Below, one piece after another: positions 22,552 through 48,945 of a stretch of 64,000 nucleotides of DNA. A program made the translations under genes and the position numbers. Origin of the DNA: a virus (taxonomy: Duplodnaviria; Caudoviricetes); the IMG/VR virus record IMGVR_UViG_3300037424_000434, positions 32,001 through 96,000 of that record; one strand, given 5' to 3'. The notes under the pieces were generated by a model. The model did not search any database and was not told the DNA's origin. It saw only the letters and a program-made list of their open reading frames with translations. Every line of letters starts with the position of its first letter. The first letter of the stretch is position 1.

Positions 22552-22848
22552 ATGGACCAAATTCAAGTAGAGCATTATCCCGTGGGTTTGTGTTGGCAAA
22601 CTGTAAACTACACCTGTACCATTGTTTCGGTTTCACTAAAAACCGGCCCGCTTGCTCGGGAGAACAGGCCAACAATAACCCACACATGGGCCTCTCATTT
22701 GGTGGAAGGCATCTCAAAAAAACATTCCATCAGGAATTACAGAAAAGAATATAGCTTCAAAAAACTACAGAAAGAGTTAAAAAGGGCTAATATTGAAATA
22801 CCCCCCAACCCGCCTACTTACTTTGACAGTGGTTTGTTTGTGGTATGA
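22552..22848 (+). CDS. Small protein with acidic LF tail
   Basis: Ends PPNPPTYFDSGLFVV. Confidence 0.65.
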   Translation: MDQIQVEHYPVGLCWQTVNYTCTIVSVSLKTGPLARENRPTITHTWASHLVEGISKKHSIRNYRKEYSFKKLQKELKRANIEIPPNPPTYFDSGLFVV

Positions 22849-22966
22849 TATTGACTCGATATCACGCTATGGTGGGCTATTGAGTATCCTATTATGGAGA
22901 TAAAACATGACAGAAGCCAACGAAACCCTCGATGACACAAAAACCCGGCTGTTTGTATTTTTCCCC

Positions 22967-22995
22967 TTGACTTAAGTAACACTCCTTGCTAGAAT
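22967..22995 (+). promoter_or_regulatory. sigma70 promoter
   Basis: TTGACT-N17-TAGAAT; spacer contains AAGTAAC. Confidence 0.7.
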
Positions 22996-23029
22996 GTTAT
23001 TACAACAAACAACGGCAAAGGAGTCTATC

Positions 23030-23338
23030 ATGGATATGGCAAAAAGAAAAGAAATCGCAGCAACAATCCTTCGGCAGATGGGTGGCACGGGTCGGCTCGT
23101 TGCCATGACCGGAGCAAAAGACTTTTGTGCCCACGAATCTGGGGTATCATTCAATTTCAAAGGATCTAAAGTGGCCAACTATATCAAGGTTATCTTGAAC
23201 TCTATGGATACCTATGACGTGGAATTCGGAAAAATCCGTGGATACACCTACCGTGTAGCAAAAGAGATGAGCGGCCTGCACTTCGATCAGCTCAAGGAGC
23301 AGTTCGAAGAGGTCACGGGATTGCATCTGACACTATGA
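23030..23338 (+). CDS. Conserved phage hypothetical protein
   Basis: IAATILRQMGG..RLVAMTGAK; AAGGAG RBS. Confidence 0.75.
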   Translation: MDMAKRKEIAATILRQMGGTGRLVAMTGAKDFCAHESGVSFNFKGSKVANYIKVILNSMDTYDVEFGKIRGYTYRVAKEMSGLHFDQLKEQFEEVTGLHLTL

Positions 23339-23348
23339 AAGGTGGTAC

Positions 23349-23714
23349 ATGTTAAAAACATATAAAGTCATTGTTGATGAGTTCCCCAGACTAGCAACCG
23401 CATTAAAGGAATTTATTGTTTTAGAGAACAATACACACGACGAGAGGCTGACAAATGTTCGCAACCAAATAAAGACTTTGGTGGGATTGTATTATCCTGA
23501 ATGGGATGTTAATATGCTGGGTCGTACAGGAACAGCCGGGAGTAGCGTCTGGATCGAAATAAAAAAAGAAATATGTATCACGGTCAAAGACAACGAGGTC
23601 AATCATCAATTGGACAACAAAAAACTACAGAAAGTGTTAAAAGGGGCTAATACTGAAATACCCCCCAACCCACCTACTTACTTTGACAGTGATATGTTTG
23701 ACTTAGAGAATTAA
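23349..23714 (+). CDS. Small protein with acidic tail
   Basis: Ends PPNPPTYFDSDMFDLEN. Confidence 0.65.
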   Translation: MLKTYKVIVDEFPRLATALKEFIVLENNTHDERLTNVRNQIKTLVGLYYPEWDVNMLGRTGTAGSSVWIEIKKEICITVKDNEVNHQLDNKKLQKVLKGANTEIPPNPPTYFDSDMFDLEN

Positions 23715-23786
23715 TTAAAGAAATTCCACAAACCCAACGACGAGTGTTGATTGACAAAAATATCTCGTTATCCTCAAAAATAAATA

Positions 23787-23815
23787 TTGACTTTCATAGG
23801 TAACCTTGTTATTAT
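23787..23815 (+). promoter_or_regulatory. sigma70 promoter with AGGTAACCT box
   Basis: TTGACT-ttcataggtaaccttgt-TATTAT. Confidence 0.75.
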
Positions 23816-23846
23816 GTAGTTGTGGTTAGGACGAACCCTTTGACGA

Positions 23847-24473
23847 ATGGAGAAAGTCATGGCATATGTATCTCAGGAAGACAAAAAGCGGTTGGCACCC
23901 GGCATCAAAGCTGTTCTAAAGAAATATGGAATGAAAGGTTCTATTGGTGTTCAGCACTATTCCACTCTGGTAGTTAAACTGAAAAGCGGGAAACTTGATC
24001 TGATCGGTAACTACAACGAGAATGCCCGTGACGAACACAAACGCCCTGACATGAAGCACTTGGACATCAACCTTTATTGGGTTGACACTAATTACAGTGG
24101 CAAGTGTCGTGACTTCATCAAAGAAATCCACAGCGCAATGAGAGGGGATGAGTATTTCGATGAATCGGATTCCATGTCTGATTATTTCCATTGCAGTCAT
24201 TACATGACGCTAACAGCCGGTGATTACAACAAGCCCTATGTCTTTGAGGGTGCCGTTGTTGAAGAAGTGGTTGAGGCTCCTGTTGTTGAAGAAGTGGTTG
24301 AGGCTCCTGTTGTTGAAGAAGTGGTTGAGGCTCCTGTTGTTGAAGAAGTGGTTGAGGCTCCTGTTCTTGATTGGCTTGATATCCTCAAACTGGAAAATGA
24401 AGAATTGCGTGATCGAGTTGCGGAGCTGGAAGCAAAACTTAAAAAAGTAAGTGAATTCGTTGCTACTTGTTAA
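23847..24473 (+). CDS. Conserved phage protein with EEVVEAPVV repeat
   Basis: MAYVSQEDKKRLAPGIKAVLKKYG pattern common in large phages. Confidence 0.8.
   Translation: MEKVMAYVSQEDKKRLAPGIKAVLKKYGMKGSIGVQHYSTLVVKLKSGKLDLIGNYNENARDEHKRPDMKHLDINLYWVDTNYSGKCRDFIKEIHSAMRGDEYFDESDSMSDYFHCSHYMTLTAGDYNKPYVFEGAVVEEVVEAPVVEEVVEAPVVEEVVEAPVVEEVVEAPVLDWLDILKLENEELRDRVAELEAKLKKVSEFVATC
24255..24362 (+). repeat. 27-bp tandem repeat, 4 copies
   Basis: gttgttgaagaagtggttgaggctcct, perfect copies. Confidence 0.95.
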
Positions 24474-24492
24474 TAAGGCACTATACCGCTCA

Positions 24493-24762
24493 ATGGATAC
24501 CGACAACCAGATGTATTCCCCAAAAACACAAAAAGGACAGTTGGTAAAATGTATATCAAAAACTCCACCTGTTGGGCTTGAGTGGGGGGAGGTATACACG
24601 GTTAAAGATGTCTGCAAATCATCGTTTCTTGACCCCCATACCAATAAACAAACATCAATGATATTATTACAGGTTGAAGGTGATTTTAGATGGCACCTGT
24701 CAGCACATTTCGCCCTACATACACCACCCCCGTTATTTGATGATGAGTTGTTCACTCTATAA
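24493..24762 (+). CDS. Small SH3-like protein with acidic LF tail
   Basis: KGQLVKCI...EVYTV; ends PPPLFDDELFTL. Confidence 0.65.
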   Translation: MDTDNQMYSPKTQKGQLVKCISKTPPVGLEWGEVYTVKDVCKSSFLDPHTNKQTSMILLQVEGDFRWHLSAHFALHTPPPLFDDELFTL

Positions 24763-24783
24763 ACAATAGACCTGCCACAAAAT

Positions 24784-24821
24784 GATAAATACTCTTGAGA
24801 CTTAATGACTTGGGAGTATTT
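24784..24821 (+). terminator. Intrinsic terminator overlapping late promoter GATAAATA
   Basis: 13-bp stem with G-U pairs, then T-run. Confidence 0.65.
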
Positions 24822-24829
24822 TTATATCT

Positions 24830-25288
24830 ATGAGACTACAACGTTACCTACAAGAAAAATATTTCAATACCATTGGTGGGTCAGGTACCGGCCAATATGA
24901 AATATTCCTCAATCCTGACCGCAAAGAATACAATGACCTGAAAATGAATTCAGCATATGGTGTTAGATTCATTCTCGACTTCAAAAACAAAAACTTTTAT
25001 GTCTTCCCTGCCGCAACCTTTCACGAGAGAGCCTTTAAGGTCATACGAGGGTTTCCCACTTTCGACAAATTCTGGGATAAAGGAGAAGGGATTGAGTGGA
25101 TATTGACCGGGGATTATTATGTTGCGGGTGATAAATACGGATCTGATGCATTAAATATGTTTGGTAAATTCCCCGGATATGACAAAAAATTAGAAATTTT
25201 GTTGAAGCAAGATTTCTCGTGGGCAAAAAGATATATTGACATACCAACGATAAAGAAATTAATAGAAGACGCTATACACAAGGAGTGA
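24830..25288 (+). CDS. Putative internal head protein, NP..E paralog family
   Basis: MRLQRYLQE; EIFLNP..E...RF..D.K.K.FY. Confidence 0.75.
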   Translation: MRLQRYLQEKYFNTIGGSGTGQYEIFLNPDRKEYNDLKMNSAYGVRFILDFKNKNFYVFPAATFHERAFKVIRGFPTFDKFWDKGEGIEWILTGDYYVAGDKYGSDALNMFGKFPGYDKKLEILLKQDFSWAKRYIDIPTIKKLIEDAIHKE

Positions 25289-25294
25289 GTAGAT

Positions 25295-26011
25295 ATGATT
25301 CAGTTAAGAGGTGGAGCACAAACAGGTTCGGTTAAAATGGACCGTATTCAAGAATTTGACGATAGAAGCAGAAATTTTCCTATTAGGCAATTAATAGGCG
25401 CAAGCACACCAAGATCTTATACTTGGCGCTGTAATGCTCAGCTTGACCAAGGGGCCGAGGGGTCGTGTGTGGGGTTTGGTGTAACACACGAACTCATTGC
25501 CCGGCCTGCCGAAGTCAAAGGTCTTGATGAGAAATATGCCAAAGAACAAATATACTGGGAAGCCCAAAAAAATGATCCATGGGATGGTGGTTCGTACCCC
25601 GGAGCAACACCTTTTTATGAGGGAACCAGTGTGTTGGCCGGAGTTAAACAGGCACACAAACTTGGATGGATGGAGTCTTATCACTGGGCATTCGGGATTG
25701 AAGACCTGAAAATGGGGGTAGGATATCATGGTCCTGCTGTTATCGGTATCAACTGGTATTCTGGCATGTTTATCCCTGACAGTAATGGATTTATTCATGC
25801 ATCGGGATATGTTGCCGGTGGGCATTGTATTCTAGTGAATTCTGTTAACATAAAAAAGCAAAGATTCACTCTTCATAACTCTTGGGGCGCAAATTGGGGT
25901 ATAAAGGGTGAGTGCTATATATCATTTGATGATATGAATCTTTTGTTGAAAGATCGAGGAGAAGCTGTATTCTTTTTGAAACGCCATAATAAACCACAAT
26001 TGGAGCAATAA
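25295..26011 (+). CDS. Papain-like C1 cysteine peptidase
   Basis: DQGAEGSCVGF, GGHCIL, HNSWG. Confidence 0.85.
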   Translation: MIQLRGGAQTGSVKMDRIQEFDDRSRNFPIRQLIGASTPRSYTWRCNAQLDQGAEGSCVGFGVTHELIARPAEVKGLDEKYAKEQIYWEAQKNDPWDGGSYPGATPFYEGTSVLAGVKQAHKLGWMESYHWAFGIEDLKMGVGYHGPAVIGINWYSGMFIPDSNGFIHASGYVAGGHCILVNSVNIKKQRFTLHNSWGANWGIKGECYISFDDMNLLLKDRGEAVFFLKRHNKPQLEQ

Positions 26012-26012
26012 T

Positions 26013-26378
26013 ATGAGGTTTGCCCAATATTTGACAGAAGAGATGAGATAGGAAACAAAGAAATATGATGGGGATTTTCCGTGGAAAAGTGATGTATATC
26101 CCGATTTGATCATTAAAGTATGGAATGAATCCAAAATTATTGCATTAATTTATGCAACAAAACTTTCAACTACAGGTATTCAGGTTGAATATGCCGTAAT
26201 ACTTGATGAAAAGATGAGAGGAAAGGGTGTCTATACAGAAATCATATCTCATTTAAACAAACAATATGAGATTGTATCGGACGAAGATAGCAATAACTCA
26301 GCAAAAGAAATATATAAAAAACTGGGAGCAGATTACCAACGAGGTAGATATGTTCTTAAAAGAGGTACAGTGAAATGA
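26013..26378 (+). pseudogene. GNAT-like protein with capsid-targeting-like leader, interrupted by an in-frame TAG
   Basis: MRFAQYLTEEMR-TAG(26049-51), frame continues to MRGKGVYT...SAKEIYKKLG. Confidence 0.65.
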
Positions 26379-26653
26379 GATTAGAAAAACTTATAAATGA
26401 GGGGCTGTTTAACAACAAGAAAAGACAGGCTCTCATTGAATCTATTCCCGAAATCAGAGAATTAGAATTCACCAAGCATCAACATCAAACCTTTGAACTG
26501 TGTCCATCGTGGATCGAACGACTTGAACAAAAGGGAATAAACGAAACCTTGTTTAAAAAGAGACAACAATTGGTTGCAACTATTCACAGGAAAATAGATG
26601 AGTCTGATCTAACAGAAAAAGACAAAGAGAACTTGAAAAAGAGGTATTCATGA
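26375..26653 (+). CDS. Putative internal head protein
   Basis: MRLEKLINE; overlaps the upstream stop. Confidence 0.7.
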   Translation: MRLEKLINEGLFNNKKRQALIESIPEIRELEFTKHQHQTFELCPSWIERLEQKGINETLFKKRQQLVATIHRKIDESDLTEKDKENLKKRYS

Positions 26654-26913
26654 AATTACGGAAATATTTAACTGAAGACAAAGAATTTGCACAATACTTG
26701 TTCGGTCAACTAGATTCCAGAGCCAATGATCTTAAAAGAGGTGTATCCAAAGGATCAATGCTTGCCGCAGAATTTGCGGATATGACGAAAAGTGATAAAT
26801 TAAAGTTTTTTAATGAAAAAGTTATACCCTTGTACCGTAAACACAGATCACCAGAGAAATGGTCGGAAGAATTGCATTTATTTATACGAAACGTTTTTGG
26901 GGAATTGTCATGA
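26650..26913 (+). CDS. Putative internal head protein
   Basis: MKLRKYLTE; ATGA coupling. Confidence 0.7.
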   Translation: MKLRKYLTEDKEFAQYLFGQLDSRANDLKRGVSKGSMLAAEFADMTKSDKLKFFNEKVIPLYRKHRSPEKWSEELHLFIRNVFGELS

Positions 26914-27410
26914 AATTTCAACGTTACCTACAAGAAGAATATGTAGATACTGTTGTATATAAACAATATCAATCAGAATTATTCGTCAATCCATCCCGGA
27001 GTGAGTTGACGGATTTAAAAGACGCTTCTCCCGGTGGATATCGGTTTGTGGTTGACACCAAATACAAAAAAATCTATATGGTTTCAAGTGAAATTTTACA
27101 TGAGGATCTGTTTGAAATAAAACCCAATTTATTGCCAAACTTCGATTTTGCCGATTATTACACCAAAGGATTGAATACTGACAGGGTTTTTACTGGAAGT
27201 GGGGAGTGGGGCAAAAAAATTATATCTGATTCATGGAGTATTCATGGGGATATACAACGATACGCAGGCAATGATAAAACTGTAAAAAAGATGACAAAAC
27301 TCTATAATACTGATATGACATGGATTAACCGATACATACCCCAAAAAGACATTAAGGAAATAATAGACAAGCTAATAAAAAGGATTGAGAGTTTTCCCAA
27401 AAAATACTGA
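26910..27410 (+). CDS. Putative internal head protein, NP..E paralog family
   Basis: MKFQRYLQEEY...ELFVNPSRSEL. Confidence 0.75.
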   Translation: MKFQRYLQEEYVDTVVYKQYQSELFVNPSRSELTDLKDASPGGYRFVVDTKYKKIYMVSSEILHEDLFEIKPNLLPNFDFADYYTKGLNTDRVFTGSGEWGKKIISDSWSIHGDIQRYAGNDKTVKKMTKLYNTDMTWINRYIPQKDIKEIIDKLIKRIESFPKKY

Positions 27411-27487
27411 AATAAAGTATTGACACCCATTCTATTTTGTTCTATGCTGTATTTGTGTTTAGACCCGAACTATAAAGGTTATGGATC

Positions 27488-27625
27488 ATGCCTCTTGTTG
27501 AAATAATATGTTGTGATTGTCAATGTCATTTGGGCTGGCTGGTCGATACGGGCCATGACAGCATGTCTTTTTGTGACGAATGCGTAGAAGAAGACGAAAC
27601 CATTCAGGATGAAGAGGAAAGATAA
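27488..27625 (+). CDS. Small acidic Zn-ribbon peptide
   Basis: CCDC...FCDEC; below the ORF-track size cutoff. Confidence 0.45.
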   Translation: MPLVEIICCDCQCHLGWLVDTGHDSMSFCDECVEEDETIQDEEER

Positions 27626-27631
27626 GGAAAG

Positions 27632-27925
27632 ATGGTAAACTATACAGACTACCATTATAGACCCACTCGACCAGATGAAAAATATACTGTATTCATGATG
27701 TATGACCAACATGGCCACAAAACAGAATATTATGCAGTGAAAGAATGTACCAGTCCACCGCTCAAACCGCTATTACTAGCACATTTATGTGTCATGGTCA
27801 CATATGATCACGAAAAGGAGACACATATACTTATAAAAAACCGAATGAGTGTTAGAGTGCCCAATATTGTGTACCACAGAAAACCCGAACAACATAACCT
27901 ACCCGAAGAATTGTTCATTATATAA
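27632..27925 (+). CDS. Small protein with acidic LF tail
   Basis: Ends HNLPEELFII. Confidence 0.65.
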   Translation: MVNYTDYHYRPTRPDEKYTVFMMYDQHGHKTEYYAVKECTSPPLKPLLLAHLCVMVTYDHEKETHILIKNRMSVRVPNIVYHRKPEQHNLPEELFII

Positions 27926-27929
27926 AATT

Positions 27930-27966
27930 GATAAATACTCCCGAATGGCTATGTTCGGGAGTATTT
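27930..27966 (+). terminator. Intrinsic terminator overlapping late promoter GATAAATA
   Basis: Perfect 13-bp stem aaatactcccgaa/ttcgggagtattt. Confidence 0.65.
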
Positions 27967-28041
27967 TGACTTTAAGGAAAATACCCAATCAATAAATAAA
28001 CAATTGTTCAATATTTTGACAATATAAAAAGGAGAGATACG

Positions 28042-28269
28042 ATGACAGATATTAATGAAATCACAAACAAATACCTTGGAGAAGCACTCTCGGGTGACCA
28101 AAAATCCATGCTAAAGGATCAAGATGTTATCCTTGACGCTATTATGGACATGACAGACAAATCCGAAATCAAAAAAATTAGTCAAATGATTAAAGACTTC
28201 AAATCCAAATATCCCGGCCATGGTGCTGACCTAACCAAGCTATTGGACAAAGAGGCGAGAGGTCTGTGA
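28042..28269 (+). CDS. Putative internal head protein
   Basis: MTDINEITNKYLGE; AAGGAG RBS. Confidence 0.7.
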   Translation: MTDINEITNKYLGEALSGDQKSMLKDQDVILDAIMDMTDKSEIKKISQMIKDFKSKYPGHGADLTKLLDKEARGL

Positions 28270-28595
28270 AGAAAATCACAAAAAACATTGCAACAATTGA
28301 ACACAACGGGCAGGAGTTCACTCGAACCCTATCCGAAATATACTAACCCCCTAATATCGGAATGTGTATGCTTGATAAAGAGATTGTTATTATATTCCTA
28401 ATGCGTAAATATTCCATTTCAATGGATCAAGCGTGTGAATACCTTGATGATCTAATCGAATCTTTGTATGAAGAGAAAAGGGTTACAGAATTTCGGATGG
28501 AATCATAGTAAACACTAATACTCCCTTCATATTGTCATTTAACCCTTGGCGTGTTATGTTCGTCCAATGGTTTTCTTTTCCTAAAGAGGTATTAT

Positions 28596-28907
28596 ATGTC
28601 CCATTTTACGTTATCGGCCAGAGTCAAGTCAAGTATAACAGACAGGGTTGCTGTTAGTCCAGACTACCGAATAGCAAAAATTAGCGACAGGGTTGATACA
28701 TCCTTATGTGCATGTCATGTACAAGGACAACGGGTACTGTTGAAACCCGCTGACCACAACAACGAACTATTTTATTTTGTTGACAATGACACTTACATCG
28801 TAGTACGATATGCTATGGTGTCTATCCATGACATAGACTATATTTTGGATGATGAGGCCCCCCTCATGCCTTGCATCAAATTAGATGAAGAGCTATTTAT
28901 TCTATGA
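28596..28907 (+). CDS. Small protein with acidic LF tail
   Basis: Ends IKLDEELFIL. Confidence 0.65.
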   Translation: MSHFTLSARVKSSITDRVAVSPDYRIAKISDRVDTSLCACHVQGQRVLLKPADHNNELFYFVDNDTYIVVRYAMVSIHDIDYILDDEAPLMPCIKLDEELFIL

Positions 28908-29116
28908 TATATGCACAGGGAACCGTTTTGTATAGAGACCCCGATATCCGTTGTACTGTATTGGACTATGACATGAAGACAGGAACATATTGTTTATATT
29001 GGATCAAATCGGGAGCGACGGCATATTGGGGGGCGTATACGGTCAATACTTACCTAAAACCATTACCACCACAACCAACCATTTTCGAGGACAACGAGGA
29101 GTTGTTTCTGTTATGA
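28904..29116 (+). CDS. Small SH3-like protein with acidic LF tail
   Basis: Ends PPQPTIFEDNEELFLL. Confidence 0.65.
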   Translation: MIYAQGTVLYRDPDIRCTVLDYDMKTGTYCLYWIKSGATAYWGAYTVNTYLKPLPPQPTIFEDNEELFLL

Positions 29117-29421
29117 AGAAATTCAAAAAGGGAGATAGAGTTGTTTTAAATACACCCAATAACGTGGGATCATTTGGTGCCTACAGTGTTTTGTGGAAAA
29201 AGTTTTGGCGGGACAACAAATCAACCATATTTATCATCGATACAGTTCACCCGAAACGCCCTTCGTACACTATAAAAACAGAAAGTGGTTCATCTGTATA
29301 CTACCAAGATTTCCCCGAAACCGGTACTGTCGCCCATTTTTGGGAAAATGAGATTATAGCAACACCAACACTTCCAGCAATACAACCAATCACGTTTGAT
29401 GAGGAATTGTTCCTACTATGA
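29113..29421 (+). CDS. Small SH3/KOW-like protein with acidic LF tail
   Basis: MKKFKKGDRVVL; ends ITFDEELFLL. Confidence 0.7.
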   Translation: MKKFKKGDRVVLNTPNNVGSFGAYSVLWKKFWRDNKSTIFIIDTVHPKRPSYTIKTESGSSVYYQDFPETGTVAHFWENEIIATPTLPAIQPITFDEELFLL

Positions 29422-29819: not shown

Positions 29820-29820
29820 C

Positions 29821-31755: not shown

Positions 31756-32022
31756 ATGTTAGAAAAAGGGGATATTGTATACTTTACATCCGAACGTATT
31801 AAGAGAGCTCAAATTGATAAAAACAACCCCAATAGAGCAGATCAATATATACTGAAAAACGCCTACAAAAAATGTATCGTTGATCGTGTCTCATATTGGG
31901 ATAATAAAAGACATATCCGATTAGTCGGTTATCGAAGAGTGTATAATGAAAACTCTTTGACCAAAATAAAACCACCATCACCCTCACAATACATGTTAAA
32001 CAAAGAATTGTTCGTTTTATGA
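31756..32022 (+). CDS. Small SH3-like protein with LF tail
   Basis: MLEKGDIVYF; ends YMLNKELFVL. Confidence 0.7.
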   Translation: MLEKGDIVYFTSERIKRAQIDKNNPNRADQYILKNAYKKCIVDRVSYWDNKRHIRLVGYRRVYNENSLTKIKPPSPSQYMLNKELFVL

Positions 32023-32795: not shown

Positions 32796-33086
32796 ATGAA
32801 TACTGTTGATGAACATTTTACTAGATCCTCTATCTATAAAAATACCCCTCTGCCCCCCAATTCAAACCTCTTACTTGTGAAAATATTAATGGGTGAATCC
32901 TATAACTATTCCAAACATGTGATCGGTGAAATTTGTGTTGTTACGCCTGCGCGAGATACTGTCTATTATCGTTTTGTTGATTCACATACTCTTACCCCAC
33001 TCAATGCATATGTTCATATATCTCACTGCAATATTATCCCACAAATTATCGCCTCTCTTCTCCCCGATGATTTATTCATCTTGTAA
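32796..33086 (+). CDS. Small protein with acidic LF tail
   Basis: Ends SLLPDDLFIL. Confidence 0.6.
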   Translation: MNTVDEHFTRSSIYKNTPLPPNSNLLLVKILMGESYNYSKHVIGEICVVTPARDTVYYRFVDSHTLTPLNAYVHISHCNIIPQIIASLLPDDLFIL

Positions 33087-33135: not shown

Positions 33136-33594
33136 ATGAAATTTAAACAATTTATTAATGAAAAATATCTTACCACCTTCTCCAATGCCGGAAATAACAT
33201 CGAAGTCTTCCTTAACCCCTCATCCAAAGAACTTAGAGATATTCCCTCCTTCCCCGCATATAGATTCTTGATCAATTTCAAAACTAAAGAATTCTATGCT
33301 TGGCATGTCAACACCTTCCACGATAACATTATGGACTTTGTCTCTTCCAAAAATCTTGCAAAATTTCCCAAGTTTAAAGAATATTGGTATGGTCACAAAA
33401 ATAATGACTACATCTTTACTGGTTCTGTTGACCCGGATGGCTCCGTTTACTCTGATCATATGTATACTCTGAAAAAAGATGGCGATAACCTCAAATTACT
33501 TAAACATGACTTCTCTTGGCTTAAACACTTCATTAATATCAACAAACTTAAAGATCTACTCCTTGCTGATGATATACATATTGTCGATGATTAA
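33136..33594 (+). CDS. Putative internal head protein, NP..E paralog family
   Basis: MKFKQFINE; TATAAATA at 33091-98. Confidence 0.78.
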   Translation: MKFKQFINEKYLTTFSNAGNNIEVFLNPSSKELRDIPSFPAYRFLINFKTKEFYAWHVNTFHDNIMDFVSSKNLAKFPKFKEYWYGHKNNDYIFTGSVDPDGSVYSDHMYTLKKDGDNLKLLKHDFSWLKHFININKLKDLLLADDIHIVDD

Positions 33595-33755: not shown

Positions 33756-34034
33756 ATGAAATATTCATTCAATATTGATGATAAAGTCAAACTGACTACC
33801 ATACAATATCATGACTCTGAATATAACCCTATATGGAACGGCATTCATGGCCAAATTGAGGGAACAATATCTGAAATCTATGAGTTTGTCTGCGGCATTA
33901 GGTATAGAGTTTTATGGGATAATAACATTGCCAATTCATATTATGCAGAAGACTTGTCTCTCATTAAACCTGTCAATATATTACTCTTTAATCCTGTCAA
34001 TATGTTACTGAATGAAGATCTATTCACTTTATAA
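33756..34034 (+). CDS. Small SH3-like protein with acidic LF tail
   Basis: FNIDDKVKL...YRVLWDN; ends LLNEDLFTL. Confidence 0.7.
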   Translation: MKYSFNIDDKVKLTTIQYHDSEYNPIWNGIHGQIEGTISEIYEFVCGIRYRVLWDNNIANSYYAEDLSLIKPVNILLFNPVNMLLNEDLFTL

Positions 34035-34186: not shown

Positions 34187-34471
34187 ATGAATTTTAATAT
34201 AGGCGATAAAGTGGTATTATCCAAAGATGTCCTAGATGAAATATATTCACCGGGTTGCGATTATATCGAGGAATTCGTTGCTCATGTCAAATCTCAAGAA
34301 CATCCCATTTATACTATCACGGGGTTTGATGGTGGCATGTATCGTACCGATGCCAAACGTTCCATTCTCTTCTCCATTACCTTGTTTTGGCTATTTCATG
34401 AACACGAAATTGTTCATGTGTCGAAATATTTTGACACGGTTCATCTCCCGGATCATCTGTTTACTTTATAA
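34187..34471 (+). CDS. Small SH3-like protein with LF tail
   Basis: MNFNIGDKVVL; ends HLPDHLFTL. Confidence 0.7.
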   Translation: MNFNIGDKVVLSKDVLDEIYSPGCDYIEEFVAHVKSQEHPIYTITGFDGGMYRTDAKRSILFSITLFWLFHEHEIVHVSKYFDTVHLPDHLFTL

Positions 34472-34665: not shown

Positions 34666-35118
34666 ATGAGACTATATAACTATCTATATGAACGGTACCT
34701 AACATCTGTTGAAACTAACCACAATATGGAAATATTCCTTAATCCATCTGCGGAAGAATTAAGAAGTATACCCTCCTTCCCAGAGTATAGATTCTTAATC
34801 AATTTTAAAACTAAAGAATTCTATGCTTGGCATGTCCAAATGTTCCATGTATCTGCTATGGATTGGATACGACATGAACATCTCTCCTTATTGCCAGACT
34901 TTAATCAATACTGGAATGGTAAAAATAATGACTTTTTGTTCACTGGTTCTGTTGATCCAGATAAAACAATACACTCTGATCTCATAACTAGTGTTATAGA
35001 AAATGGCGATAATCTCAAATTACTTAAATTTGACTTCAAATGGATGAAACAATATATCGATATTAAAGAACTCGAATATCTATTGCTACATGGTGATAAA
35101 AAGAAAAAATGGCGATAA
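34666..35118 (+). CDS. Putative internal head protein, close paralog of 33136
   Basis: MRLYNYLYE; shared IPSFP.YRFLINFKTKEFYAWHV; TATAAATA at 34522-29. Confidence 0.78.
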   Translation: MRLYNYLYERYLTSVETNHNMEIFLNPSAEELRSIPSFPEYRFLINFKTKEFYAWHVQMFHVSAMDWIRHEHLSLLPDFNQYWNGKNNDFLFTGSVDPDKTIHSDLITSVIENGDNLKLLKFDFKWMKQYIDIKELEYLLLHGDKKKKWR

Positions 35119-35174: not shown

Positions 35175-35450
35175 ATGGAGATTCCTTTGGATAACATATT
35201 CATAATAGGTGATAGAGTCATTCTTACTTCTAATACATATCCCGATAAAATTTCCAATCCCAGATGGAATGGATATTTTGGCCAAATTATTGGATCTGTA
35301 ACTCACTCTTTTACTCCAAGTATTAATGTTCTTACCGTTTTTGTTGAATGGGATAATGGAGCACATAACTCATATTATCCCTTTGACTTGTCTCTATATC
35401 AAAATATGTCCCCACCTATTCAGTTCCCTGAGGATCTATTCATTTTATAA
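35175..35450 (+). CDS. Small SH3-like protein with acidic LF tail, paralog of 33756
   Basis: IGDRVIL...NPRWNG..GQI.G...VEWDN..NSY; ends QFPEDLFIL. Confidence 0.72.
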   Translation: MEIPLDNIFIIGDRVILTSNTYPDKISNPRWNGYFGQIIGSVTHSFTPSINVLTVFVEWDNGAHNSYYPFDLSLYQNMSPPIQFPEDLFIL

Positions 35451-36535: not shown

Positions 36536-36703
36536 ATGAAATTCAATGAATATCTTACTGAAGGGTATAATAGAAGAACGGTTGACAAGGCGATCAACAT
36601 GTTTTTTGATATGTTGGATAAAAAGGAAACGTCAAATCAAGACATACAAGATCATATCGAATGGATAGTTGCTGAACTAAAATTACAAGCAAAACATAGA
36701 TAA
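36536..36703 (+). CDS. Putative internal head peptide (55 aa)
   Basis: MKFNEYLTE; GATAAATA at 36495 and AAGGAG RBS. Confidence 0.7.
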   Translation: MKFNEYLTEGYNRRTVDKAINMFFDMLDKKETSNQDIQDHIEWIVAELKLQAKHR

Positions 36704-42335: not shown

Positions 42336-42359
42336 AAAATTTTCTCCTCTCTAAATATA

Positions 42360-42948: not shown

Positions 42949-43036
42949 GTTTCAATCTCCTTTAATGTTTTTTGATAACAATCTTTTAATAAAAAACAAA
43001 ACCTACTCTTTTTCTGTTTATCAACAAATTAGAAAC

Positions 43037-43549
43037 CTAAACTCCCGCACGGTGCTTCTCGATCCGGTCGAAAATCTCATAAACAAACGCCTCGTGTTCG
43101 TCTTTAAGATTTATTTTTGCTTTATTGAATTCATAGTATTGTTGGGCTGTATTTCCGAACTTGTAGCCCATCGCTGTCCAGTCAATAACCATATGGATAA
43201 CATCCATATAATTTTCAGCGGTTTCGTGGTGGTGGTGATTCTTCTCTTTGTGATTTTTCCACGCAGAATCAAAGCCACTGGATCTCTTGTCTTCGTCATT
43301 CACTGGGGAGAATGATGCCCTATACTGGACAAATTCTTCCTTACTGAATTTCGATAAATCGTGCGCTATCACTTCGGCCCGAAGAGTATGCCAACCACAA
43401 TCATCCCCAACCCACAACATGTCACCACAAGCGTTTGATATTTCAATAAACGCTAATCGCACATTTTCAAGATGATCTTCGAGGTAGTCTAAATACTGCC
43501 GTGTTTTGTCGATATAGTCTTGTCCTGCCATCCGATCTATAAAAGCCAT
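43037..43549 (-). CDS. HD-like (DUF5662-type) protein
   Basis: H...V, AHDLSKF..EEF..Y, AWKNHKEKNHHH, MVIDW. Confidence 0.7.
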   Translation of the reverse strand: MAFIDRMAGQDYIDKTRQYLDYLEDHLENVRLAFIEISNACGDMLWVGDDCGWHTLRAEVIAHDLSKFSKEEFVQYRASFSPVNDEDKRSSGFDSAWKNHKEKNHHHHETAENYMDVIHMVIDWTAMGYKFGNTAQQYYEFNKAKINLKDEHEAFVYEIFDRIEKHRAGV

Positions 43550-43616
43550 AATTCCTCCTTTCTGGTATCAAATATTCAGTCCATTTTCGTGTTATTGAAT
43601 TTGCTTGTCTCGGGGT

Positions 43617-43841
43617 TTATCGATCTTTTCCTTTGGTTCCCTTGATATAAGCTTCTTTGTTGAGCCTGATTTGTTCTACTGTTGCTTGTTCAGATCCGCA
43701 GTAATCACAGACAGCATAATGAAGATCCACAACAATAGGAATCCCATCAATCGTCTCATCCAATACATGTTTAGTTACCAAGTAGTCTACGTAACCTATA
43801 AAACAGATTGGGCATTTGGTTGACTCTGTTTGATTATTCAC
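43617..43841 (-). CDS. Stand-alone MqsA/YgiT-type zinc ribbon
   Basis: CPIC...IPIVVDLHYAVCDYCGSE. Confidence 0.6.
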   Translation of the reverse strand: MNNQTESTKCPICFIGYVDYLVTKHVLDETIDGIPIVVDLHYAVCDYCGSEQATVEQIRLNKEAYIKGTKGKDR

Positions 43842-43912
43842 CGAAGTTCCTTTGGGGTTTAGTTTGTCTTGCTTGGCATGGAGACGGTTGATTGTGTTGC
43901 ACCCGAGGGAAT

Positions 43913-44083
43913 TTAGATAAAGCCAAGTGACGCTACCCCGAATTCATATGCAGACCGCCATCCACACCACGCATCTTGAATTGACGGCAACACATAATCG
44001 CCATGTTCGTTGCGTCTCATTGTATGCTTGTTTCCCCTGAGATGGTACATTTCGAAATCCTCGCGAATTTTTGCTTCATCCAT
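43913..44083 (-). CDS. Small hypothetical protein
   Basis: REDFE...YV...IQDAWCGWRSA. Confidence 0.55.
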   Translation of the reverse strand: MDEAKIREDFEMYHLRGNKHTMRRNEHGDYVLPSIQDAWCGWRSAYEFGVASLGFI

Positions 44084-44093
44084 TACTATCTCC

Positions 44094-44297
44094 TTATATC
44101 TTGAACAAATCGCCATCAAAATATTCCACAACACTACTCTTTTTATGTTTGGCCAAACATCTTTTACAGGTTATATTGTCAACAACAAGCGTAAGTTTCA
44201 AGCCCTTGCCTCTTGCTCGTTTTGTTTTGCAGAGGGCTTCGTTTATGCCGTAATGTATCACCGGAACATACTCTCCGAATTTTCTCCATAAATACAT
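44094..44297 (-). CDS. Small protein with acidic LF tail
   Basis: HY...ALC...ITCKRC; ends YFDGDLFKI. Confidence 0.6.
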   Translation of the reverse strand: MYLWRKFGEYVPVIHYGINEALCKTKRARGKGLKLTLVVDNITCKRCLAKHKKSSVVEYFDGDLFKI

Positions 44298-44326
44298 AAC
44301 TCTCTCGTCTCTGTCATGAACAATGG

Positions 44327-44536
44327 CTAATCGTTTTTTCGTCTATCCCCACCAATATCTTCGGTTCTGGAATATCGGCGTTTAAACGCATAACAATCAT
44401 CCCACTCATCAAGTTCCCATTTCTGAATGACCCGAACTCCCTCCCAATGTCCTTTTGAACACCAAGCCCATGGGCTACTCAAATTATACTCAGTTAGTTC
44501 TTCGCCCATTCTATACATGCATTCATCACATTTCAC
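44327..44536 (-). CDS. Small Cys-containing protein
   Basis: CDEC...CSKGHW. Confidence 0.45.
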   Translation of the reverse strand: MKCDECMYRMGEELTEYNLSSPWAWCSKGHWEGVRVIQKWELDEWDDCYAFKRRYSRTEDIGGDRRKND

Positions 44537-44592
44537 AAATTTTTCTCCGTTGTTTGGTGATATCCAATCCTATTGTCAGCGAAAAGGGGGAA

Positions 44593-45165
44593 TCACACAA
44601 TTTGGCAATGGGAGGGCACTAAACAAACAACACCTTTCTTTTTTATAAAAAGAGCTTGTCGGTTGAAATTCCAAACAAACAATGTACTGTTATTTGGTTT
44701 ATCTGTGAGTACATCCATAACCCAAGTGTATGGCACTCCACAATCAAGATCGTCAATGTAATTATTAATATGGGCTGGTTGTGGTTCGGGGTCAGGTTCC
44801 TCTTTGTTTCCACAGGTACAATTCCCCCCACATCCCTGCCCTCCAGAATTGTTGGGTGGTGTGTTTACTTGCTCCCCTGTTGACGAGGTAAAACCTGATG
44901 GTGGGGTTTTGTGAAGAGTAGAGTCATTAGTTTCGATGTTTTTCCTATCACTTTCTGTACATGGTGATTTTATTTGTTCCTCAAAAATGTATTCTTCTTG
45001 ATTACTCGGTTCCACCTCAATCCCAAACTCTGACAATTTGCTTTTCAGTCGGGAAATATAAGATAGCTGGTCTTGCACCAAGGCATCCAGACTTTCGTTG
45101 AGTTTTCGGGATTCTTTGAGTCCGGCTAATAGTTTGCGGATTGTTGCGGTTTGGTCAATAGACAT
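44593..45165 (-). CDS. Hypothetical protein
   Basis: Coiled coil, low-complexity linker, C-terminal beta region. Confidence 0.6.
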   Translation of the reverse strand: MSIDQTATIRKLLAGLKESRKLNESLDALVQDQLSYISRLKSKLSEFGIEVEPSNQEEYIFEEQIKSPCTESDRKNIETNDSTLHKTPPSGFTSSTGEQVNTPPNNSGGQGCGGNCTCGNKEEPDPEPQPAHINNYIDDLDCGVPYTWVMDVLTDKPNNSTLFVWNFNRQALFIKKKGVVCLVPSHCQIV

Positions 45166-45277
45166 TTGTTTCTCCTAAGCAGGATTAAGGACATAGTTAA
45201 TGGTCGTAAAAATTATATCATAACATTTCCGGGTTCTACATGTCAACAAGTTTTTGTAGATTTTTCGACATATCACA

Positions 45278-45538
45278 TTAAAGAAATAAAATCAGCCAAG
45301 CTAGAAGCTTGCACACGATATATGATCCAGTCAGCGCCGTTGGCACAGAAATCAGCCACACCACCAAATCACTCCGAAACAAACGTTGAAGTTTAGAAAA
45401 AACAAATACGAAAATAGGGACTGCAATGAAAAGAAATACCAAAAATTCAAACACAGAACTATCTCCGCTCCAGAGAAGTTTGTCCAACTCCATTTCAGTA
45501 CGTGACCTATATAAAATTATCGATCCACCATTTTGCAT
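45278..45538 (-). CDS. Two-TM membrane protein
   Basis: Hydrophobic helices; AAGGAG RBS. Confidence 0.55.
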   Translation of the reverse strand: MQNGGSIILYRSRTEMELDKLLWSGDSSVFEFLVFLFIAVPIFVFVFSKLQRLFRSDLVVWLISVPTALTGSYIVCKLLAWLILFL

Positions 45539-45676
45539 TTTGTTTTCTCCTTTTCTGTCTGTGTTTGTTTGTATTGACGAAGTTCTTTTTTTAATTGTTT
45601 ACCGGCGATGCAAGGCTTTTTGCATTCTCCCCCACATGAACAATCAGATTGATAGTTCATAATAAATCCTTTCTAA

Positions 45677-45949
45677 TCAATGTAAGGTTTTCAGGAAAAC
45701 CTCTCCTTTGCCTGAGAGGTAATAATAAGGGGTAAAAGATTTATGAGCATATGACCATCTCAGATCTTCTGCCAGATATCCTTCAGAAACGGCGACATGG
45801 ATGCTAGTTGATTTGAAACCATGATATTCAAGTGCTGGTCCGAAATTACATCCACCTTTACTGATGGTTTGAAGCAAGTCAACAAGATCCCTGTATGCCT
45901 TGATTTCGGTAATATTTTCTTTCCGTTTTTCTTGACTCAGTGTATTCAT
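45677..45949 (-). CDS. Hypothetical protein, possible winged helix
   Basis: AGGAG RBS; YYLSGKGEVFL ending. Confidence 0.55.
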   Translation of the reverse strand: MNTLSQEKRKENITEIKAYRDLVDLLQTISKGGCNFGPALEYHGFKSTSIHVAVSEGYLAEDLRWSYAHKSFTPYYYLSGKGEVFLKTLH

Positions 45950-45983
45950 ATGTAGTATCTCCTACCAAAGTTGGGGCCAAAAG

Positions 45984-46190
45984 TCAAACACAATCTAAAA
46001 TTTTTGCTTGCAGCACATCAACCCATTGTTCTGTATCCATATCGTTCAACCGATACACCATGACCATGCTGTCATCTAGCATGGGAACAGATTTGTGAAG
46101 TGGGTGAAAATAAAAGTATCCACATCCACGAACCAACTCATATCCTATGTCGGCTATTCGGTCGTTGATTTTTTTGAGTGTTAATTTCAT
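45984..46190 (-). CDS. Conserved phage hypothetical protein
   Basis: IN..I...GYELVRG.GYFYF...V.RLND. Confidence 0.65.
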   Translation of the reverse strand: MKLTLKKINDRIADIGYELVRGCGYFYFHPLHKSVPMLDDSMVMVYRLNDMDTEQWVDVLQAKILDCV

Positions 46191-46258
46191 GGATACTCCA
46201 TTGTTTCCTTTCAACAATATACCACCACGCCCTCTAAAAGTCAAGCCAAAAACGAATA

Positions 46259-46290
46259 ACCCTCTCACATAAGTGGTGAGAGGGTATTTT
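46259..46290. terminator. Hairpin terminator
   Basis: accctctcac/gtgagagggt plus T-run. Confidence 0.6.
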
Positions 46291-46589
46291 TCTATTAAGT
46301 TATATGTTTATTATGTTATATTAGGGGGTTATTTAACGGGCCATCTCTGATACTATTTGTTTTTGACCGGTGTTGATGCATTTGATGTTCCTTTGGCAAA
46401 GTAAAGTTTTATTAAGTAACGTTATTGACCGTCAATACTTCAAATCATCCGCAACAAAACCACAGCTATTTGCAGAATACCCAAAATCATTATCACAAAG
46501 TCTTGCTTGTATAAAGTTGATTTGTTCCATCATGGTCTCCTATCACACGCGGGATTATATGGACACTATATCATATGTATTTTTATCAG

Positions 46590-46787
46590 TCAAGCTTTTT
46601 TGTTTGAACAAGAACGTTTTGTATTTGATTTTAATGCAATCAGTCCACGCCAAATCCCATACCAGAAACCACCAAAGATGGCTGTATCTTCAACGACAAT
46701 CTTTGTCGTGTCTGTCCTGACTACACAAACAGCTTCTCTAGATTCTGTCTGTTCGTTTAACTTTTTTAGTGTTTCAAGACCGTGCAT
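46590..46787 (-). CDS. Hypothetical protein
   Basis: AAGGA RBS; MHGLETLKKLN. Confidence 0.5.
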   Translation of the reverse strand: MHGLETLKKLNEQTESREAVCVVRTDTTKIVVEDTAIFGGFWYGIWRGLIALKSNTKRSCSNKKA

Positions 46788-46997
46788 ACTTTTATCCTTT
46801 TTTTATAAAATAGAGGGTATAGTAAAAATAGGGAGGTACTGGCCGAGTCGGCACATATACTCCACAAAATAGATGAATCAAAATGTATGGCACACAATAT
46901 CCATATTATATTGACCAAAGATGCTTTCGCCAAAAGGTTCATTTGTCGTTAAATTCGTTGTCCAGTGAGAGTCTTGTTACGGGATATTTATATTTAT

Positions 46998-47026
46998 ATG
47001 CTACCAAGGTTACCTATGAATGTCAA
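46998..47026 (-). promoter_or_regulatory. sigma70 promoter with AGGTAACCT box, abutting a late promoter at 46991-98
   Basis: TTGACA-ttcataggtaaccttgg-TAGCAT. Confidence 0.72.
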
Positions 47027-47070
47027 GCAAGTTTTTGAACTGATATCGAAACAGTAAGTTTACGAAGTAA

Positions 47071-47268
47071 TCAGTCCTTCCATTTCTGTTTATAGGTGTC
47101 TTTTATTTCTTGGATATTAGCGGTTGTCGTGGGCATCATAACAACATTTAATATGTATATTATGTGATCAATTAGACACGGACCCATACCAACATCTGGA
47201 TTAGAATCATCATATAATTTCCGGTATCTTGTGGCAACAGCCAAAGCTCTCACCAACTCATCAGTCAT
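47071..47268 (-). CDS. Hypothetical protein
   Basis: ORF with AGGA RBS. Confidence 0.5.
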   Translation of the reverse strand: MTDELVRALAVATRYRKLYDDSNPDVGMGPCLIDHIIYILNVVMMPTTTANIQEIKDTYKQKWKD

Positions 47269-47495
47269 TGTATTTCCTGTTAACTCTCATTGCTTCATAC
47301 ATTTCTTCGAGAAGTTTACGGCGAGGGCATCTATAGCACTCAGCAAAAGTTTTGTCCACACATTTATCAAATGGTCTGTTTTCCGTTGGACAAAATACTC
47401 TTCTTCGCATCGACCCCCCCCTTTTTTATTTTTGAGTCATCTTCCCGTATAGATATCTGGTACAATTTACCGCAATGCCAGATTCCACGTTATCC

Positions 47496-47843
47496 TCATT
47501 TGTCCAAAAATCTCTCAAGCTCGTGTATATCCTCGATGGACCAGTCACGAAGATTAAGTTCTTTAAACATTTTTGTCACGTGATAAATAGCCAAGTTTTT
47601 TTCTTTTTCCTTGACCAGCAATGCAACCATTGACGGCGTAACATGTTCTATGGATTCTCTAAACCAGACAGAATCGCCGATCCGTATCCCTGATGTTTTG
47701 TTGTACCGTGACGCCCCGATGATCACTTGCGTCTTTGTGGTTCGATCCACAATTTTTAGTTGTTTAGAGTTTCCCGCATTGGTTGTGACAACAACATAAT
47801 CTCCGGCCACCAAATCCTTTGTCTCTTTTTGCCCATCTTTCAT
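47496..47843 (-). CDS. SH3-like phage hypothetical protein
   Basis: LVAGDYVVV...VDRTTKTQV......Y.K.SG..IG. Confidence 0.65.
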   Translation of the reverse strand: MKDGQKETKDLVAGDYVVVTTNAGNSKQLKIVDRTTKTQVIIGASRYNKTSGIRIGDSVWFRESIEHVTPSMVALLVKEKEKNLAIYHVTKMFKELNLRDWSIEDIHELERFLDK

Positions 47844-47859
47844 AACAACTCTCCTTTGG

Positions 47860-48075
47860 TTATATTCTCTTAGATCTACATAAAAATCCACACACAACAT
47901 TACACCCGATAGACACGGTTAAATATAAAACAACAATGAATGTGGAAAACAGCATAGGAGCTCCAAAACAAGCCAACGAGGCGTTTATTATCACACACGC
48001 TACCGACCATACCCATGAGACATATGAGCCCGCCAAAAAGCCTCTCAGGAGGCTTTGGCGTATATTTGGAATCAT
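47860..48075 (-). CDS. Membrane protein
   Basis: Hydrophobic. Confidence 0.5.
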   Translation of the reverse strand: MIPNIRQSLLRGFLAGSYVSWVWSVACVIINASLACFGAPMLFSTFIVVLYLTVSIGCNVVCGFLCRSKRI

Positions 48076-48287
48076 AGTGTAAATAGATCCTCGGTTAAAC
48101 TTATTTTTCTTTGTTCCCCTACCATAACTTTCCACTCAATCCTATATGCGGATTTGTTACAATGCAAGCAAGGCATTGGTAGAAAGTCACAAGAGCTTAT
48201 ATTACCATATCGACCCATGAAATGTTTATCAAGGTCCGTTTGGGACACCGGGCGTTTACAATGCGGGCATATCACGAATTTGATCAT
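48072..48287 (-). CDS. Zn-ribbon protein with acidic LF tail
   Basis: CPHC...CLHC; ends ISLTEDLFTL. Confidence 0.65.
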   Translation of the reverse strand: MIKFVICPHCKRPVSQTDLDKHFMGRYGNISSCDFLPMPCLHCNKSAYRIEWKVMVGEQRKISLTEDLFTL

Positions 48288-48633
48288 TTATGTATCCTAC
48301 ACCAAAAATGTTAGGCGTTACTTTATCCTGAACCACTTACAGGCCAGCATCACTATAATGCACAGCACCGGCCCTCCAATGAGTGTCATAAAAATAAACC
48401 ATATTTGAAATTCGCGGCTATATTCCATAGCGTTTGTAAAACTCCATAATCGAAATCTCAGCCCTACCACCACACTCGCTATCCCGGTATCTTGCATATT
48501 TAAAATACAGTGATTTCAATTCGTCCACGCTTAAGTGTTCCATTAGTAATTAGCCCCCACTGTAAACATTATTTCATCAAACCGTTTATGCGTTCTCAAA
48601 TAGATTTTTGTTGATCTGAAAATCCGTTTTCGA

Positions 48634-48945
48634 CTAAACCTCAAACAAGTCTTCTTGGTCAACAAAAGCATTGCTGGCAACAAGCTCGAACCAATCTTCG
48701 TGCCACTTTTGGTCACATGGATCAGTGTGTAAAGTTACAACGGGAATGTCTCCCAAATCATAGCTCAATGCAGTGACTCGCATTAAACCCAGTCCTACCA
48801 TATTACAGATCCATTCTCTAGGCCCACCCCATTGACTGTACAACCTGAAGATTTGTTTGTGGTTGATGATGCGTTCTTGGAGATTGCTTTTCAGTCTAAC
48901 CAAATCTCCCACAGCAAATTTATGTTTTTTGGGTTTAGTTGTCAT
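48634..48945 (-). CDS. SH3/KOW-like protein with acidic LF tail
   Basis: KFAVGDLVRL...WHEDWFELV; ends VDQEDLFEV. Confidence 0.7.
   Translation of the reverse strand: MTTKPKKHKFAVGDLVRLKSNLQERIINHKQIFRLYSQWGGPREWICNMVGLGLMRVTALSYDLGDIPVVTLHTDPCDQKWHEDWFELVASNAFVDQEDLFEV

Follow-up and report, generated by a model that had tools for sequence, protein, structure and literature searches.

Tail genes in the window

The window analysed here is a stretch of 64,000 nucleotides from an uncultured phage (bases 32001-96000 of the 235,765-bp IMG/VR virus record IMGVR_UViG_3300037424_000434, estimated completeness 98%). The record originates from a sediment metagenome. Within this window lies a set of small genes whose products share one short acidic peptide at the C-terminus, here called the tail. 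An earlier note, made from the sequence, had listed 15 such open reading frames (ORFs; lengths in amino acids, aa), and all of them were recovered at the same positions and with the same endings:

22552..22848, + strand: 98-aa ORF with a loose tail, ending PPNPPTYFDSGLFVV
23349..23714, + strand: 121-aa ORF ending PPTYFDSDMFDLEN (tail plus three residues), C-terminal region paralogous to 22552
24493..24762, + strand: 89-aa ORF (103 aa from GTG 24451) ending PPPLFDDELFTL
27632..27925, + strand: 97-aa ORF ending NLPEELFII
28596..28907, + strand: 103-aa ORF ending KLDEELFIL
28904..29116, + strand: 70-aa ORF ending PPQPTIFEDNEELFLL, its start overlapping the preceding stop (ATGA)
29113..29421, + strand: 102-aa ORF with a KKFKKGDRVVL start, ending ITFDEELFLL
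31756..32022, + strand: 88-aa ORF ending YMLNKELFVL
32796..33086, + strand: 96-aa ORF ending SLLPDDLFIL
33756..34034, + strand: 92-aa ORF, SH3-like (MIB_HERC2/DUF4314-type) barrel in residues 1-70, flexible linker and tail LLNEDLFTL
34187..34471, + strand: 94-aa ORF with a loose tail, ending HLPDHLFTL
35175..35450, + strand: 91-aa ORF, paralog of 33756 (44% identity), ending QFPEDLFIL
44094..44297, - strand: 67-aa ORF, Cys-containing and zinc-ribbon-like, ending YFDGDLFKI
48072..48287, - strand: 71-aa zinc-ribbon-like ORF (CPHC...CLHC) ending SLTEDLFTL
48634..48945, - strand: 103-aa ORF with a KFAVGDLVRL start, ending VDQEDLFEV, with TTGACT-17-TATGGT upstream

A six-frame scan of the window for these endings revealed 12 strict ([DE]LFx[LIVM]-stop) and three loose members, all within 22552-48945, and no comparable endings in the rest of the window. 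The strict pattern before a stop codon was observed 13 times in the window, compared with a mean of 0.65 (maximum 4) in 200 shuffles, whereas the same pentapeptide away from a stop occurs near chance level (14 versus 9.3 in shuffles). Over the whole record, the strict tail [DE][LM]Fx[LIVM]-COOH stands at the exact C-terminus of 13 of the 345 called genes, where 0.057 would be expected from the internal frequency of the motif (Poisson about 1e-26). Enrichment at C-termini is therefore observed against shuffled sequence as well as against internal positions. The 24 nt encoding the tail vary in their synonymous codons between genes (GAAGAATTGTTC, GATGATTTATTC, GAGGATCTATTT and others), and the DNA 3' of the stop codons is unrelated between copies. 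An origin of the tail as a DNA repeat is thereby ruled out and the constraint lies on the peptide.

A consensus logo was built from 112 tails. Counted back from the end of the motif, position -8 is L (67 of the 112) or F (29), position -7 is P (49), D (29) or E (12), position -6 is E (50) or D (38) and is often D, S or G, and position -5 is E (61) or D (33). Position -4 is L in 107 tails and M in the other 5, F occupies position -3 in all 112, position -2 is variable, and L (50), I (35) or V (19) is found at -1. Beyond the motif, 18 of the tails extend for another 1-4 residues, which are mostly acidic. As a modular short linear motif, the tail reads [L/F]-[P/D/E]-[E/D]-[E/D]-L-F-x-[L/I/V], located at the C-terminus or followed by 1-4 mostly acidic residues. 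It had been described as a free C-terminal peptide, but the few members with residues beyond the tail indicate that the carboxylate is not strictly required.

The bodies in front of the tails are for the most part dissimilar, as had been claimed: BLASTP of the 15 bodies minus their last nine residues found similarity in only two pairs, 22552/23349 and 33756/35175. Searches of the window bodies with Pfam and PHROGs matched almost nothing, and beyond the SH3-like and zinc-ribbon-like proteins no body is recognisable among the window carriers. An SH3/KOW-like F-x-x-G-D-x-V start, attributed by the earlier note to many of the genes, is present in about six of the 15, one of which has an SH3-like barrel as its body; it characterises only a subset. 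The proline-rich linker before the tail is borne out by the logo, in which P is the commonest residue at positions -7 and -11.

Carriers elsewhere in the phage and in its relatives

The uncultured phage is a distant relative of T4, and its B-family DNA polymerase shares 27% identity with gp43 of cyanophages. Its genome encodes a gp44/gp62 clamp loader, a gp45-type processivity factor, gp32, UvsX, UvsY, UvsW, gp46/47 and gp55, together with 27 tRNAs, a tmRNA, ClpP and a ClpB-like ATPase. The clamp gene (genome 4722-5483) was missed by the Pfam models for gp45 and found through synteny with gp44/gp62 and through phrog_223.

The 15 small genes turned out to be part of a larger set, since the tail is also carried by UvsW and by bL12-like, DUF932, P-loop and SLOG proteins. 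From the window and a scan of the whole genome, about twenty otherwise unrelated carriers were counted in this phage, and its relatives add dozens of others. Those outside the window are:

genome 16354-17835 (L003:16354-17835), - strand: UvsW helicase adjoining uvsY (as in T4), tail near the C-terminus, ending ...DMFESSLFGEQQKNPTLS
outside the window: Cys-rich 127-aa protein ending ...LDEDLFSV
outside the window: SLOG/phrog_289 protein ending ...NHFEESLFWVWE
outside the window: P-loop protein ending ...DHFEGDLFKV
outside the window: DUF932 protein ending ...NSDLFVVS
outside the window: bL12 C-terminal-domain-like protein ending ...NHFEPDLFEMFP

Among 120 UvsW homologs, the ending [FY]-[ED]-x-x-L-F-(x-x-x) is found in nearly all that exceed about 63% identity, and about 25 close homologs are tailed in this way. 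Scattered more distant UvsW homologs are also tailed (e.g., ...MDEDLFIL). The C-terminus of T4 UvsW differs from this pattern, being acidic and Phe-tipped (...EDSDDEVEESF).

Related genomes show the same combination of a stable tail and changing bodies. The genome G2, with a polymerase 75% identical to that of this phage, is syntenic with genome positions 8-54 kb and carries at the same junction 10 small ORFs ending in [FL][DEP][ED]xLFx[ILV]. Of these 10, only one could be recognised as the ortholog of a gene in the window (22552; 37% body identity), and it has kept its tail, NHFEEGLFEI. Four tails were found in G4/G8 (clamp 51% identical), including the orthologs of the P-loop and DUF932 proteins, both of which retain the tail in G4. 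About ten small ORFs with tails are present in G7, whose clamp is about 37% identical; a 121-aa protein of G7, which passes the Pfam Ribosomal_L12 threshold, ends in ...LPDELFVIE, so that the tail of the bL12-like protein is kept as well. No tails were detected in G5 and G6, which are 50-69% complete and have clamps about 38% identical; their UvsW and DUF932 orthologs are likewise untailed. An array was also found on a 49.5-kb ENA contig (ERZ23498673 scaffold_178, L087). Its positions 8493-28735 are occupied by some 45 small genes that overlap and run in the same direction, and 32 of these, within 20 kb, end in LP[DE]ELFx[LIV]. Genes for a GIY-YIG endonuclease, a Lar-like restriction-alleviation protein and DndB are located near this array.

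A scan of IMG/VR for LP[DE]ELFEL-stop gave five isolated matches and no new clusters. In cultured phages, neither megablast with the tail-gene region nor tblastn with ORF 33756 gave a match. The region was absent from all RNA runs, and its occurrence is limited to sediment metagenomes. Full-text literature searches by motif strings and by topic yielded no description of the tail. Taken over all carriers, the tail emerges as a portable peptide that strong purifying selection maintains even as the bodies diverge beyond recognition.

The SH3-like body family

At E <= 1e-3, a search of 1.84 billion proteins gave 427 representatives for the family of ORFs 33756 and 35175, and about a fifth of this family is tailed. 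Its members show weak matches to MIB_HERC2, DUF4314 and other SH3-type Pfam models, and a comparison of a family member with cultured phages gave weak matches only to two Proteus T4-like phages. An AlphaFold2 model of ORF 33756, calculated from an alignment of 94 sequences, contains a five-stranded barrel in residues 1-70 with predicted local distance difference test (pLDDT) values of 94-98, and the last 22 residues, which comprise linker and tail, are unstructured (pLDDT 58-67). Foldseek with this model found weak, generic SH3/KOW/MIB/Tudor matches.

About 25 of 148 other representatives of the family carry the tail (L-P/D-D/E-E-L-F-x-L/I/V). On a tree of the domain alone (94 sequences), the distribution of the tail needs at least 20 changes, compared with 23.4 +/- 1.8 for shuffled labels. 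Either the tail has been gained and lost often in this family or the short tree is poorly resolved.

Promoters and neighbouring genes

Sigma70 promoters had been proposed for several of the tail genes. The number of sigma70-like matches is only slightly above that in shuffled sequence (78 versus 60 +/- 8). An early class of the tail genes is therefore plausible only. No TATAAATA late-promoter box was found directly 5' of any tail gene.

This box precedes members of a different gene set, whose products share an N-terminal leader and which is interspersed among the tail genes. As had been stated before, the tail genes are without this leader. It starts M-[KR]-[FL]-x-x-[YF]-[LI]-x-E, resembling the capsid-targeting sequence of T4 and its protease site [LI]-x-E, and is found on unrelated or paralogous proteins. 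Three genes of the leader family lie directly behind the box (33091, 34522, 55137). The members are:

24830-25288, + strand: leader-tag family
26375-26653, + strand: leader-tag family
26650-26913, + strand: leader-tag family
26910-27410, + strand: leader-tag family
33136-33594, + strand: leader-tag family
34666-35118, + strand: leader-tag family
36536-36703, + strand: leader-tag family
20844-21599, - strand: leader-tag family, further member
54197-55093, - strand: leader-tag family, further member

Two other genes of the region have conspicuous products. In a 208-aa ORF (window 23847-24473, + strand), VVEEVVEAP is repeated perfectly four times in tandem before a coiled-coil-like end. In a 238-aa ORF (window 25295-26011, + strand) inside the tail-gene block, papain-like motifs were recognised by eye (QGAEGSCVGFG ... 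GGHCILV ... NSWG).

A probable docking tag and its possible reader

The tail is portable, is kept by selection, occurs on unrelated folds and lies outside the folded domain, which is the signature of a short linear motif with an external reader. It is thus likely that the tail serves as a docking tag, and we infer that a single partner reads it. The hydrophobic pattern (i, i+4, i+5, i+7) together with the acidic face suggests a short amphipathic helix that binds in a hydrophobic groove with basic surroundings. The common docking peptide would probably form such a helix with its hydrophobic residues at -8, -4, -3 and -1, and a flexible, often proline-containing linker would join it to the unrelated folded bodies. 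By means of the tail, many accessory early proteins and a few enzymes (UvsW and the bL12-C-terminal-domain (CTD)-like, DUF932, P-loop and SLOG proteins) could plug into one partner.

The earlier note had suggested an adaptor library of variable domains connected to one hub, which would be a system for host take-over or anti-defence. The modular, selected tail on unrelated bodies and its conservation across relatives are what one would expect of a common docking or handling tag; an adaptor library for take-over or anti-defence is conjecture. That many clients can be recognised by one hub through a short tail is established for clamps, for SSB-interacting proteins (SSB, single-stranded DNA-binding protein) and for proteases. 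In its widest form, which we regard as rather doubtful, the proposal would be a proteome-wide system of address tags in a clade of uncultured T4-related phages: an eight-residue peptide freely gained and lost would mark 20 to more than 30 early accessory proteins in each genome as well as UvsW and a bL12-CTD mimic for one receptor. This receptor would be either the phage sliding clamp, serving as a platform on which take-over or anti-defence factors collect at the phage DNA, or a private timer degrading its carriers together.

The leading candidate for the partner, and still a tentative one, is the phage's own gp45-type sliding clamp. Encoded beside the gp44/gp62 loader, it would act as a toolbelt that concentrates tailed proteins on replicating phage DNA. 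The clamp-binding motifs of the T4 family are short C-terminal peptides, hydrophobic and acidic in character, which follow divergent flexible linkers and can be exchanged between gp43, gp33 and gp55 (PMC2988020). Their sequences are NTLDFLL-COOH in gp33, PSLDFLYE in gp55, EGLDFLFD in the ligase and EKASLDFLFG in gp43 (PMC7892883 supplement, PMC6212786). The tail has the same architecture, i.e. a portable hydrophobic-acidic peptide at or near the C-terminus behind a divergent flexible linker and followed by the carboxylate or an acidic residue. The combination of linker and C-terminal peptide that defines sliding-clamp-binding motifs (SCBM; PMC2988020) is found in the logo of 112 tails and in the AlphaFold2 model. 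In RB69, gp43 ends in ...EKKASLFDMFDF-COOH as read from the RB69 genome, i.e. SLFDMFDF-COOH, and the core DMFDF-COOH fits the tail pattern [DE][LM]Fx-hydrophobic-COOH. The C-terminal peptide of the RB69 polymerase has been crystallised in complex with the clamp of that phage (as cited in PMC2988020, PMC6212786). The genome of this phage encodes both clamp and loader, and UvsW, the best-understood conserved client, is a DNA helicase. It is the match to the RB69 core, the architecture of the T4 motifs and the action of UvsW on DNA that place the clamp first.

Several observations weigh against the clamp. The DNA polymerase of the phage (L004:8999-11179, + strand) does not carry the tail and ends in QNQAFNFFFGG, a clamp motif similar to that of T4 gp43, and the polymerases of relatives end in QNQSFNAFFGG or QNQAFNLFFGGSQQ (pattern QNQ[AS]FNxFFGG). 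The gp55 homolog (L008:17854-18486, + strand) ends in KKKKKKKTDS and has neither a hydrophobic tail nor the C-terminal epitope of T4 gp55. Clamps are present in G5 and G6, incomplete genomes in which tails are missing. The spacing of the tail (i, i+4, i+5, i+7) is unlike LDFLF and unlike the PIP-like register of RB69, and a bL12-CTD-like protein and arrays of at least 30 small proteins are hard to rationalise as cargo of a DNA clamp. A complex prediction for the clamp trimer (27-homolog alignment) with the last 37 residues of ORF 29113-29421 scored 0.01 and speaks neither for nor against binding.

Two further clamp-binding codes do not describe the tail. The bacterial beta-clamp motif QL[SD]LF has P/D/E and E/D at the matching positions of the 112 tails, with Q being rare, and compared with the PIP box (Q-x-x-[LIM]-x-x-[FY]-[FY]) the tail has no Gln, a single aromatic residue and its hydrophobic residue four instead of three positions before LF.

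The gp55 homolog has an acidic repeat, (DIEEI)x6, at its N-terminus. A gp33 was not identified in this phage. Located 3' of an RNase H-like exonuclease gene, a 72-aa ORF (L011:4906-5124, + strand) ends in ...VSEGLFF, with ...VSNVYFG and ...ISNVDF in relatives, and might be a gp33-like clamp client.

Alternative explanations

The best-surviving alternative to the clamp, which we consider possible if somewhat less probable, is another single hub: host RNA polymerase, the ribosome or a translation factor, the host beta-clamp, or gp32, UvsX or UvsY of the phage. The tail is unlike the polymerase's own clamp motif, a bL12-CTD-like carrier is conserved in this phage and G7, and the SH3/KOW-like bodies resemble the KOW domains of NusG/Spt5 in fold. 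The gp32 of the phage (L025:1351-2319, + strand; genome 220571-221539) moreover has a distinct acidic amphipathic tail of its own, TDALLAELSDM (DQDLLKELDEL and EADLLAELENF in relatives). It represents a third tail code in addition to the tail and the SSB-like ending described below, and shows that several tail codes coexist in one replisome. No positive evidence points to any particular one of these hubs, however, and for the beta-clamp the Gln of the bacterial motif is missing in the tails. Phyletic profiling of the tailed genomes (this phage, G4 and G7) against G5 and G6, on contigs 47-69% complete, returned an HNH endonuclease, a RusA-like resolvase and two proteins of unknown function and nothing else, which at this completeness is not informative.

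Alternatively, the tail could be a degradation or adaptor tag by which early proteins are handed to an AAA+ protease (host ClpXP/ClpAP, Lon or FtsH, possibly the phage ClpP) and cleared on schedule. The very diverse clients (a helicase, a translation-factor-like and a nucleotide-binding protein, dozens of small proteins) would be more in line with a general handling tag than with a hub specific to DNA. In the model the tail is an unstructured, accessible C-terminus, and orthologs gain and lose it. In addition, the phage encodes a ClpP (window 11150-11650, + strand; Pfam E 5e-44), a ClpB-like protein of 736 aa (L002:11777-13987, + strand) and a tmRNA (L010:10355-10709, genome 210355-210709) that adjoins the block of 27 tRNAs (genome 196973-210346). 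The tag of this tmRNA, AEDNFALAA, shares E-D-x-F-x-L with the tail. Despite these points, we regard degradation as unlikely. With eight positions constrained, among them the invariant LF and the acidic ones, the tail would fit a groove of a folded domain better than a pore, and the free carboxylate is dispensable in 18 of the 112 tails. ClpX reads LAA-COOH, while the tail, ending in F-x-[LIV], is without the L-A-A-COOH terminus of ssrA and the ClpX C-motif-1 degrons, and we know of no degron with the sequence of the tail. The ClpB-like protein has two AAA+ modules and a ClpB-type M-domain, and lacks an N-domain and the [LIV]-G-[FL] loop for docking to ClpP. A search for an SspB homolog found none encoded, and G7 is tailed although neither ClpP nor ClpB occurs in the 97 kb of it that were examined. 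A phage Lon protease as the reader was rejected; the 736-aa protein labelled 'ATP-dependent protease' in PHROGs is of the ClpB-like disaggregase type.

It is very unlikely that the tail has no common reader at all and is either the conserved end shared by a single family of rapidly diverging paralogs or part of the structure of each protein. Many carriers on the ENA contig are indeed paralogous, with a common ...DRFEL... segment before the tail, and the window contains two paralog pairs. Plain paralogy is however excluded by the unrelated folds that carry the tail (SF2 helicase, DUF932, bL12 CTD, P-loop, SLOG, zinc ribbon, SH3), and against a structural role the tail is not packed on the folded domain in the model and is present or absent among close homologs.

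Least probable of all is a sorting signal for capsid packaging, export or a phage compartment: variable cargo, flexible linker and short C-terminal peptide resemble encapsulin cargo-loading peptides and the tail genes are interleaved with genes of the T4 capsid-targeting-like leader, but UvsW and replication-associated proteins are unlikely capsid cargo, the TATAAATA box of the leader-family genes is missing before the tail genes, the acidic tail is not membrane-active, and it is C-terminal where the T4 capsid-targeting sequence is an N-terminal leader. A prohead-protease site [LI]-x-E within the tail was rejected, as -6 is often D, S or G and E in only 50 of the 112 tails.

Comparison with known systems

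Small early genes of large phages are mostly orphans, and a shared portable tail offers a handle to fish for their common partner. It would define a functional class with dozens of orphan proteins per genome and a number of conserved enzymes as members. With the sliding clamp as the partner, the 'toolbelt' of T4, at present four clients, would expand to a large accessory proteome; with a protease, the tail would mark a virus-encoded programme of timed self-clearance. What appears to be new is the motif itself and the number of its carriers, at least 20 per genome and up to 32 within 20 kb in one relative, which for the most part are early proteins without known homologs. A tail on UvsW and on a ribosomal bL12-CTD-like protein, and the frequency with which one domain family has gained and lost it, likewise appear to be without precedent.

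In the ssrA/SspB system of bacteria, the tag is also portable, unstructured and C-terminal, and the E-D-x-F-x-L of the phage tmRNA tag adds to the likeness. It differs from the tail by its LAA terminus and by the adaptor SspB, which is not encoded here.

A resemblance also exists to the C-terminus of SSB (DDDIPF-COOH) and to the tails of T7 gp2.5 and gp4 ending in Phe, in which an acidic run and an aromatic residue form a flexible C-terminal docking handle. There, one tail serves many partners, whereas here many proteins share one tail, which ends in LFx[LIV] and not in the D-D-D-I-P-F tip. Exactly this bacterial SSB tip was found on a 121-aa ORF of the window (49629-49994, - strand; ...RRFLLDDDIPF), which has no OB-fold signature and no PHROG match. 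This ORF shows a second tail code in the tail-gene block and, by its ending, implies a host SSB that ends in DDDIPF.

The clamp-binding peptides of T4-like phages are comparable to the tail in being portable and connected through a divergent linker. The tail does not match LDFLF and the spacing of its hydrophobic residues differs; in RB69 gp43, where the core agrees, the register upstream of it is not that of the tail. In number, too, the systems differ, with four known clients in T4 and at least 20 carriers per genome here, most of them small orphans.

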